Origin: Reyranellaceae bacterium
Lineage (GTDB): Bacteria > Pseudomonadota > Alphaproteobacteria > Reyranellales > Reyranellaceae
Direction of reading: 5' to 3'
Length of the DNA: 64,000 nucleotides
Assembly: GCA_022844045.1 (NCBI GenBank)
Contig: JALHMM010000016.1
Location: 19,806-83,805 of the forward strand
The notes under the pieces: model-generated
What the model saw: only the letters and a program-made list of their open reading frames with translations
Told to the model about the DNA's origin: nothing
Databases searched by the model: none
Program-made: the position numbers and the translations under genes
Shown here: piece after piece, positions 29,140 through 29,943 of the stretch
Layout: each line of letters begins with the position of its first letter
How positions within the stretch are numbered: the stretch's first letter is position 1

Positions 29140-29943
29140 CTAGTCGCCGCCGATCGGTATGCCCATCGCGACCGCCTGGGCATGCACCTGCGCATCCGGC
29201 CGGGTCGGCGCGCCCGGCGGGATGTAGAGCGTCGAGGCGGCGGACAGCTCGACCGTCGCGAGCCCGCTGATCCGGATCCAGCTGATGCGCGGCCGGCAGC
29301 CGAACTGGACGGCCGCCTCATAAACCGCGACGTGATGGGTCGGCGCGAAGAATCGCCCGAGCTTGGCGATCAGCAGCGGCATCAACGGCGTCTCGTAGCG
29401 CCCCATCGGGCTGTAGCCCTCGTTGCCGAGGATGCCGATCTGCCAGAGCACGAGCGCGCTCGCGGGATCCGTGGGCCGCTGGTTGAACAGGTAGTCGGTC
29501 GCCTCGTAGGACGAGCACCCGGTGGTCGCCGGATCGAAGCCGACATCGGCGAACAGGCAGTCCTCGGCCGAGATCCCCGGCAGCATGACGGCGGAGAATC
29601 CTTCGGCGCGGGCCTGCTTCACCGCCTCGTGCGACGGATAGACGAAGACGCCCGGGTGTCCGTAGAACACGGCGCAGACCGTCAGCCCCTCGCGCACCAG
29701 CGACAGCACGCGCTCGACCATGGCGTTGTAGGTGTCGATCCGCTTTGTTGACGACGAATAGAGCGTCTGCAGCGATTCCGACTTCTCGTTCAGCGCCGCG
29801 ATCATGTCCTCGGCGACCGGATCGCCGACGACATAGACGACGCGGTCGGCCATCCGGATCCAGGAGATCGCCTCGACCGTCATGTGGCCGACGGTGCGCA
29901 GTCCGGTGCCGACCACGACGAGCTTGCCGCGCTTGTCGGTCAT
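29140..29943 (-). CDS. tetrapyrrole-methylase-fold SAM methyltransferase of the borosin alpha-N-methyltransferase type (OphMA/SonM-like), stand-alone
   Basis: Carries KLVVVGTGLRTVGHMT, VFYGHPGVFVYPSH, MLPGISAEDCLFADVGFDP, YEATDYL, LVLWQIG and STLYIPP. These match, from memory, the methyltransferase domain of the omphalotin enzyme OphMA. The start ATG overlaps the upstream stop (ATGA). Confidence 0.8.
   Translation of the reverse strand: MTDKRGKLVVVGTGLRTVGHMTVEAISWIRMADRVVYVVGDPVAEDMIAALNEKSESLQTLYSSSTKRIDTYNAMVERVLSLVREGLTVCAVFYGHPGVFVYPSHEAVKQARAEGFSAVMLPGISAEDCLFADVGFDPATTGCSSYEATDYLFNQRPTDPASALVLWQIGILGNEGYSPMGRYETPLMPLLIAKLGRFFAPTHHVAVYEAAVQFGCRPRISWIRISGLATVELSAASTLYIPPGAPTRPDAQVHAQAVAMGIPIGGD

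Follow-up and report, generated by a model that had tools for sequence, protein, structure and literature searches.

Backbone N-methylation gives peptides protease resistance and helps them to cross membranes, and borosins are, to our knowledge, the sole ribosomal route to it. The present study concerns a stand-alone borosin alpha-N-methyltransferase (NMT) encoded in a 64,000-nucleotide (64-kb) stretch of DNA from a Reyranellaceae bacterium (assembly GCA_022844045.1, contig JALHMM010000016.1, positions 19,806 to 83,805), hereafter the window, and the genes that surround it. These encode, among others, a protein arginine methyltransferase (PRMT) that ends in a borosin-binding domain (BBD), and a large repeat protein.

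The type IV borosin system (SonM/SonA of Shewanella oneidensis; PDB 7LTE) likewise possesses a discrete NMT of about 265 amino acids (aa) without fused BBD or core; the catalytic residues are the same, and a homologous five-helix BBD resides on a separate polypeptide. That polypeptide, however, is a small dedicated precursor with an N-terminal BBD and a C-terminal core, and no such precursor was found in the 64-kb window. Here, the BBD is carried by a 383-aa arginine methyltransferase with no core after it, and the substrate is probably a repeat protein of 494 aa, encoded separately and without a BBD. The systems of type V (RceM/RceA) and types VI–VIII resemble the window in that the precursor has no BBD and its core is repeated many times in near-identical form (ten times in RceA), and in that the BBD is on an enzyme. 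In those systems this enzyme is the NMT itself, whereas in the window the NMT has no BBD and the domain belongs to another methyltransferase that is unrelated to it. Among the relatives of the window system, only those from Acidobacteriota have a BBD on the NMT, at its N-terminus. A BBD on a tailoring enzyme other than the NMT was also mentioned, as a single unusual case, in a RODEO-based survey of borosins (bioRxiv 10.1101/2024.01.09.574750). The partner in that fusion is a GNAT acetyltransferase, not a PRMT, and neither the survey nor its nine supplementary files mention PRMT, PrmA or arginine. The literature that we searched contained no paper linking borosins with PRMTs or with Pro/Arg repeats, and a 2024 review of the methyltransferases acting on peptides made by the ribosome and modified after translation (RiPPs) lists no PRMT-type methylation of arginine side chains.

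The system of the window matches none of the described borosin types 0–X and is a new split-borosin variant, a three-component dual-methyltransferase module. The reading that we favour as the probable one is that the split NMT works in a dual-methyltransferase operon, in which the PRMT carries the BBD and the Pro-rich half of the repeat protein serves as substrate.

Two methyltransferases and a borosin-binding domain

The following features are central to this comparison:

29140–29943, minus strand: stand-alone borosin NMT, 267 aa (PDB matches, motifs, conserved residues)
29940–31091, minus strand: type-I-like PRMT (residues 1 to about 310) with C-terminal BBD, 383 aa in total (PRMT6 match, Foldseek, motifs, AlphaFold2 model)
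29967–30119, minus strand: BBD, PRMT residues 325–375, five helices, followed by 8 disordered residues (KPVVTP end) (SonA matches, model)

The 267-aa protein is a genuine split, stand-alone borosin NMT and displays every feature of this family that can be read from a sequence. An identical gene is present in the JGI annotation of the source contig, a metagenome contig of 211 kb (3300002461 AADWTP_10000306). In the window, its start codon overlaps the stop codon of the PRMT gene as ATGA. The protein matched the Pfam family TP_methylase (PF00590) with an E-value of 1.7e-20, and its strong matches in the structure database were to borosin N-methyltransferases only: dbOphMA (5.8e-58), OphMA (about 2e-53), MroMA (7e-50), and SonM (2.6e-48). 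Tetrapyrrole methylases (uroporphyrin methylase) gave 3e-4 at best. The length of the protein is comparable to that of the split enzyme SonM (263 aa), and it is devoid of the clasp, BBD and core, about 150 aa in all, which make OphMA act on itself. The preliminary description of this locus, made from the DNA sequence without database searches, had named the protein a split borosin NMT without fused core peptide, lacking the clasp, leader and core of OphMA. Both statements are borne out by the PDB matches, the SonM-like length and the lack of a BBD. The end of the protein had been placed about 30 residues past the LYIPP motif; this motif occupies residues 239–243 and the C-terminus lies at residue 267, 24 residues on, which is close enough to the estimate. 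The further claim that a substrate must come in trans is upheld for a split, core-less enzyme. The last 25 or so residues (29140–29210) are semi-conserved in the clade, with the pattern P..PD....A.A..(M/L)G(I/V)..G. The terminal end is a small Gly/Ile/Val-rich stretch and is probably a normal C-terminal helix.

The NMT was aligned with eight NMTs of related loci as well as with OphMA and dbOphMA, and then with 35 further bacterial NMTs. The segments FYGHPGVF (residues 93–100) and SAEDCLFAD (residues 125–133) are intact and invariant in the clade. They include the YGHP and DCLFAD motifs, on which Imani et al. based their hidden Markov models for the detection of borosin NMTs. No variation was seen among 36 bacterial NMTs at residues Y62, R68, Y72, Y94, F100, E147, W167, and Q168. 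In the alignment, the first four of these correspond to Y66, R72, Y76, and Y98 of OphMA. As judged from a constant offset of -1, R68, Y72, Y94, F100, E147, W167, and Q168 would be the counterparts of R67, Y71, Y93, F99, E146, W166, and Q167 of SonM, which were assigned as active-site and 'lock' residues in the SonM paper. The preliminary description had made its assignment depend on the conservation of the catalytic Tyr and Arg residues, and these are conserved. With the catalytic set intact, the enzyme appears to be functional and is predicted to methylate the peptide backbone.

The protein encoded directly upstream is, by its sequence, a bona fide type-I-like PRMT with intact catalytic motifs, for which omega-N-methylation is predicted. 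It matched PRMT6 at 1.8e-41 and the Pfam domain PRMT_C at 9e-14. The S-adenosylmethionine (SAM) motif I (VDVGAGSG), the double-E loop (SEWMG...E; E105, E114), and the THW loop (T253, H254, W255) were invariant in 33 PRMT homologues, and the C-terminal beta-barrel of type I PRMTs was also present. The AlphaFold2 model of the whole protein had a mean predicted local distance difference test score (pLDDT) of 91.7 and retrieved PRMT6, CARM1, and PRMT1 in Foldseek with TM-scores of about 0.8. The protein thus resembles eukaryotic type I PRMTs (PRMT6, PRMT1, CARM1) in its fold, SAM motif I, double-E loop and THW loop. It differs from these enzymes in being bacterial, in having a BBD tail, and in being encoded in an operon with a peptide-modifying enzyme. 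Aravind and colleagues proposed, on the basis of in silico analyses, that PRMTs arose from bacterial peptide methylases of secondary-metabolite operons (PMC3417536). The module described here fits this proposal and supplies a candidate substrate.

The C-terminal tail of this PRMT is identified, by profile comparison and modelling, as a SonA-type BBD and is predicted to bind the NMT. When the last 60 or so residues were searched alone, the leader of SonA was the top PDB match (E-value 0.017). A profile built from 32 homologous PRMT tails matched SonA at 1.7e-8 and residues 312–375 of OphMA at 0.014. Five helices were modelled at PRMT residues 325–375 with block-mean pLDDT values of 83–96, and a five-helix bundle is the defining feature of BBDs in the SonM/SonA literature. 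The best 50 Foldseek matches of the complete model, all of them PRMTs, included no independent structural match for this small domain.

The tail of the PRMT-like protein had been listed in the preliminary description as one of two candidate substrates, the other being the repeats of the 494-aa protein. If the tail were the substrate, the PRMT-like protein would itself be the precursor, and its BBD would deliver its own end (EALFKPVVTP) to the NMT in a SonA-like manner, with a very large N-terminal extension. The tail does align end to end with the SonA leader, and there are known cases of borosin precursors that form part of a large protein (OphMA, type 0). However, just 8 disordered residues of low confidence follow helix 5; these terminal residues are unconserved, and only 2–5 of the 8 exist in some homologues. 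The chain stops 15 residues after the conserved Asp (11–12 residues in some homologues), while the methylated residues L63 and I65 of SonA sit 17 and 19 residues after it. The tail is therefore not a core, since it ends too soon after the BBD to reach the active site in SonA geometry. The BBD is also detachable: in the Acidobacteriota relatives it has been cut from the PRMT and is fused to the NMT. Accordingly, we rejected the tail as a core peptide, and a precursor role of the PRMT is very improbable. This candidate is better described as a docking domain. Of the two candidates, preference goes to the repeats of the 494-aa protein, because a homologous repeat protein is encoded upstream in every related locus and because the BBD of a sister clade is fused to similar Pro-rich hydrophobic repeats.

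The relocated BBD was found in the Acidobacteriota locus L012 (positions 6949–8058; loci and proteins outside the window are cited by our L and P numbers) and in no fewer than seven clusters of NMTs about 350 aa long (fusion proteins P0195, P0199, P0202, P0204, P0205, P0207, and P0210). In these, the PRMT is tail-less and the BBD forms the N-terminus of the NMT, with some 30 residues of variable linker between the two. The same layout was seen in L024 (6992–8407), but the PRMT and NMT frames of this locus look frameshifted in the assembly. In this Acidobacteriota-type subclade, the stop codon between the two genes has thus switched from one side of the BBD to the other. The domain, lying where the genes meet, can therefore be part of either protein; the NMT is its constant partner, and no attached core is needed. 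This argues for the NMT, rather than an attached core, as the functional partner of the domain and lends indirect support to the predicted binding.

A search with the BBD profile in six frames of the 64-kb window returned the PRMT tail (1.5e-27) as its sole match, the next one having an E-value of 1. The earlier statement that no small SonA-like precursor frame is obvious here, and the search for short BBD-like open reading frames (ORFs) that was proposed along with it, thus led to the same answer. A small conventional BBD-core precursor encoded elsewhere in the genome could still be the true NMT substrate, in which case the linkage to the repeat protein would concern the PRMT only. The limitation of the search to 64 kb leaves room for such a gene, and there are genomes with more than one borosin NMT (for example, there are two Allosphingosinicella NMT entries). 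This explanation is nevertheless highly unlikely, given that the NMT is translationally coupled to the PRMT-BBD protein, that the NMT and the repeat protein co-occur in 13 of 13 loci across phyla, and that the cluster already provides a BBD.

The two-part repeat protein and its relatives

The repeat protein is encoded upstream of the PRMT gene and consists of the following parts:

31208–32692, minus strand: two-part repeat protein, 494 aa, likely precursor or substrate (codon GC content, synonymous repeats, conserved linkage)
32471–32569, minus strand: conserved N-terminal motif ERHVIYRIDSATNQVVGIESLDPATGKREEMPM, residues 42–74 (similar motifs in related loci)
31895–32440, minus strand: acidic repeat region with GYDPY and GYDPNA units (DPY-type repeats in all related precursors)
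31847–31864, minus strand: junction motif ALTLFP, residues 277–282 (recurs in related loci)
31211–31864, minus strand: basic Pro-rich region, 218 aa, with IRPPL, VRPPL, and VFPIRPPL units (composition; QVFPQ repeats of the sister clade)

The GC content at the first, second and third codon positions of this frame is 0.72, 0.53, and 0.82, as in the neighbouring genes, and does not fit the overlapping ORFs. Three such ORFs of 562, 461, and 193 aa across the repeat region were rejected on the basis of codon-position GC content and protein conservation across loci. The 18 IRPPL units are encoded by nine DNA versions that differ at synonymous sites only. These repeats appear to be under selection at the protein level, since the copies differ only synonymously and codon-position GC content fits the frame.

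The N-terminal half of the protein is rich in Tyr, Asp, Gly, and Pro and has a net charge of about -31. In the basic half, Pro accounts for 37% and Arg for 14% of the residues; the net charge is +30, and there are 29 RPP units. This half is composed of P, L, R, V, I, and F only, plus a few M, Q, A, and T, and it alone contains the hydrophobic aliphatics that characterise the cores of OphMA and SonA. The net charge of the whole protein is -3. Homology searches with the 494-aa protein returned unrelated low-complexity proteins only and not even the query itself, so that related precursors were identified through their gene context.

The N-terminal motif extends over about 33 residues and follows the pattern E.H.V...D..T.Q......E.D..TG.RKE..M. 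Similar motifs were present in the precursors of L006/L010, L011, L012, L024, L091, and L093, and weakly in that of L013; none was found in the precursors of L007, L008, L089, and L090. It may represent a leader or recognition element. The junction motif, (P)ALTLFP, recurs in L007, L090, L091, and L093, with weaker versions in L012 and L024, and is a candidate protease or recognition site at the boundary between the acidic and basic parts.

The basic half resembles bovine Bac5 (RFRPPIRRPPIRPPFYPPFRPPI...) in being cationic, in its Pro and Arg contents, and in its xRPPx units (IRPPL, FPIRPP). Also, the PIRXP motif, which was reported to be essential in Bac5(1-17), is contained in it. In both cases, the pro-form includes an anionic partner region. 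The basic half differs from Bac5 in being bacterial, 218 aa long, highly repetitive, and predicted to be methylated. Proline-rich antimicrobial peptides are defined by a proline content of at least 25% and a net cationic charge (PMC7736402). The composition of the basic half falls within this definition (37% Pro, charge +30), and the unprocessed protein has a charge of -3. The similarity to Bac5 is one of composition and motif, not of membership in this group; it may reflect convergence or no more than a similar composition.

About 48 clusters of PRMT+BBD fusions, 40–61% identical to the window protein, were detected in a large protein database. Among 185,579 species representatives, about six possess either a full-length PRMT-BBD fusion or the variant with the BBD on the NMT. 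All of these are uncultured metagenome-assembled genomes, which belong to Paracoccaceae, Allosphingosinicella, Nitrosospira, Burkholderiales, and two Acidobacteriota. The module is rare and known from uncultured genomes only; standard mining may therefore have missed it. Thirteen related loci had readable upstream DNA. In all 13, from Alpha- and Betaproteobacteria and Acidobacteriota, the genes occur in the order two-part repeat protein, PRMT, NMT. The repeat proteins of these loci, 193–494 aa in size, have no Pfam match and contain acidic DPY-type repeats followed by basic repeats of the type x(R)(P/Q)P-x, such as IRPPL, VRPPI, VFPVRPP, and VIRQPIW. The precursor of L012 (4941–5924) deviates from the two-part order seen elsewhere, as its acidic GYDPY repeats flank the basic RPPL block on both sides.

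Beyond the PRMT-linked NMTs, the closest clade is represented by P0211, which is 57% identical to the window NMT and is encoded at L094, the one locus of this clade that was examined. No PRMT is encoded at L094. The gene upstream of P0211 (L094:3393–3974) codes for a protein of 193 aa whose BBD is of the same type (52 bits with the tail profile) and is followed by a linker and (QVFPQ/LVFPQ)n repeats. These repeats contain no Arg, and the protein has no acidic repeat region. This is the classical type IV layout, with a Pro-rich hydrophobic repeat as the core, and it looks ancestral to the system of the window. Judging by their sequences, the PRMT-linked precursors look like derivatives of an L094-type layout, in which Arg replaced Gln, an acidic region was added, and the BBD was relocated; the precursor of L007 still has FPIRQP. 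The BBD-repeat fusion of L094 is the strongest evidence for the basic hydrophobic half as the NMT substrate.

The two methyltransferases could also divide their work, the PRMT acting on arginines of the basic half and the NMT on the acidic GYDPY/GYDPNA repeats or on the N-terminal motif. Across loci, the conservation of the acidic repeats equals that of the basic ones. In other systems, AinM methylates acidic residues in DVDV repeats, and SamA1 is methylated in its leader and gives an anionic unmethylated product. Two observations make such a division unlikely. Namely, the BBD-fused precursor of the sister clade possesses Pro-rich hydrophobic repeats only and no acidic ones, and hydrophobic aliphatics of the OphMA/SonA core type are confined to the basic half.

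Operon context and proposed pathway

The repeat protein, a hairpin, the PRMT-BBD protein, the NMT, and an S8 protease make up a four-gene operon. The 4-nucleotide (nt) overlap of the PRMT and NMT genes recurs in L005–L008. The remaining features are as follows:

27654–29129, minus strand: subtilisin-like S8 peptidase, 491 aa, TTG start (Pfam Peptidase_S8, 8.6e-39)
31149–31180, no strand assigned: perfect GC-rich palindrome or hairpin of 16+16 nt (32 nt) (sequence; hairpins in related loci)
33069–33659, minus strand: AraC-family regulator, directly upstream on the same strand (Pfam HTH_18, 4.8e-24)

The TTG start codon of the S8 peptidase gene (29129) lies 11 nt past the NMT stop codon and behind a GGAGGA sequence. 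A longer ORF of 555 aa, overlapping the NMT gene by 182 nt (29130–29321), was rejected in favour of this start. The peptidase has an I9-like propeptide and no obvious signal peptide. Orthologues with 46–59% identity adjoin the module in L011, L024, L089, L090, L091, and L093, and an orthologous S8 gene is adjacent in seven of the 13 distinct loci. This enzyme is the probable processing protease. In L005, a DDE transposase fragment (2294–2692) directly follows the NMT gene, at the place of the S8 gene in the window.

The 116-nt gap between the repeat-protein and PRMT genes (31092–31207), which the preliminary description regarded as filled by a palindrome and not by an ORF, is real and contains the palindrome given above. 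Strong GC-rich hairpins follow the repeat-protein gene in most related loci (L006, L007, L011, L013, and L089–L092); their sequences are unrelated. In L089 and L011, the hairpin is followed by a T-rich run, as in an intrinsic terminator. Hairpins are common downstream of RiPP structural genes. The one in the window may act as an attenuator or mRNA stabiliser and thereby set the ratio of precursor to enzymes.

Taking the domain identities, the intact catalytic motifs, the linkage of the genes and the conserved module as a basis, we infer the following course of events, in which complex formation, the methylated residues, cleavage and activity are predictions. After transcription of the operon, the hairpin would favour an excess of the precursor. 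The PRMT-BBD protein would dock on the NMT dimer via its BBD, as the SonA BBD does on SonM, giving one complex; the isolated SonA BBD binds SonM with a Ki of 3.9 μM. This complex would act on the basic Pro-rich half of the 494-aa protein. The PRMT would methylate the guanidino groups of about 30 arginines in the RPP units. The NMT would methylate backbone amides of Leu, Ile, Val, and Phe, and possibly Arg; two to four such non-proline residues separate one Pro-Pro pair from the next. The acidic Tyr/Asp half would neutralise the basic half and act as a pro-region. Where present, the S8 protease would free the modified part, plausibly at the ALTLFP junction. Our confidence in the assignment of substrate and docking is somewhat better than even; that in the activity of the product is much lower.

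An alternative to this release of a peptide is that the repeat protein is itself the mature product, tuned by methylation and functioning through Tyr-Arg self-association between its halves or as a structural polyproline protein, with the protease being accessory or regulatory. Its large size (193–494 aa across loci), its balanced charge of -3 and the absence of an S8 gene from about half of the loci are consistent with this, as is the lack of a conserved transporter or immunity gene near the related modules. PMC10549244 likewise presents most split borosins as having no known released product. On the other side stand the dedicated orthologous S8 protease in seven loci, the conserved junction motif between the halves, the hairpin located after the gene as for RiPP structural genes, and the resemblance of the basic half to Bac5. 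We regard a mature, uncleaved protein as a possible but rather doubtful explanation.

Several observations weigh against the preferred pathway, in which the PRMT-borne BBD serves the methylation and release of the basic half. The search for another BBD precursor covered only 64 kb of the genome. The PRMT of the Acidobacteriota variant is devoid of a BBD; the tethering of PRMT to NMT is therefore not essential to the pathway. Borosin NMTs elsewhere methylate acidic repeats ('DVDV' of AinA) and leader regions (SamA1), and the acidic half could thus be the NMT target. As the repeat protein is large (494 aa) and near-neutral overall, it might function in its modified form without being cleaved to a peptide, and the S8 gene is missing beside about half of the related modules. 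Finally, the position of OphMA Y63 is occupied by Gln59 throughout this NMT clade. In neighbouring NMT clades, this position is Ser, Thr or Tyr, and Gln59 is no sign of decay because the position varies among bacterial NMTs. The counterpart of SonM Y58 is ambiguous by spacing and could be either Q59 or Y62; the SonM paper gives no OphMA residue equivalences and reports that the Y58F variant is still active, at 1/15 of kcat.

The AraC-family protein may be a local regulator; its gene is not conserved in the related loci, where the neighbours differ. Other genes in the vicinity (about 22500–24000 and 35300–37000 of the window) encode a Fic-domain protein, an NYN nuclease beside an AAA_16 ATPase, and at least two TctC-family receptors. 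None of them is conserved beside the module in other loci. A YcaO-TfuA pair (thioamidation-type RiPP enzymes) was located about 3 kb upstream of the module in L091 (272–2078) and may belong to an unrelated cluster.

Implications for borosins and bacterial arginine methyltransferases

We tentatively suggest that this is the first ribosomal pathway in which a PRMT and a borosin NMT are joined via a BBD and act on a Bac5-like Pro/Arg repeat substrate. If so, between its prolines and N-methylated residues the product could have almost no free backbone NH. Methylated arginines, a charge-neutralised pro-protein and release by a dedicated subtilase would make it a bacterial counterpart of the proline-rich antimicrobial peptides of animals. 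The repeat protein would also be the first defined physiological substrate of a bacterial PRMT. A concrete, repeated RPP substrate makes the proposed origin of PRMTs from bacterial peptide methylases directly testable. The location of a BBD on a second tailoring enzyme suggests that these domains can recruit other chemistries to the NMT, which could be of use in engineering. Should the product be Bac5-like, it would represent a heavily methylated, bacterially made scaffold for ribosome-targeting antibiotics.

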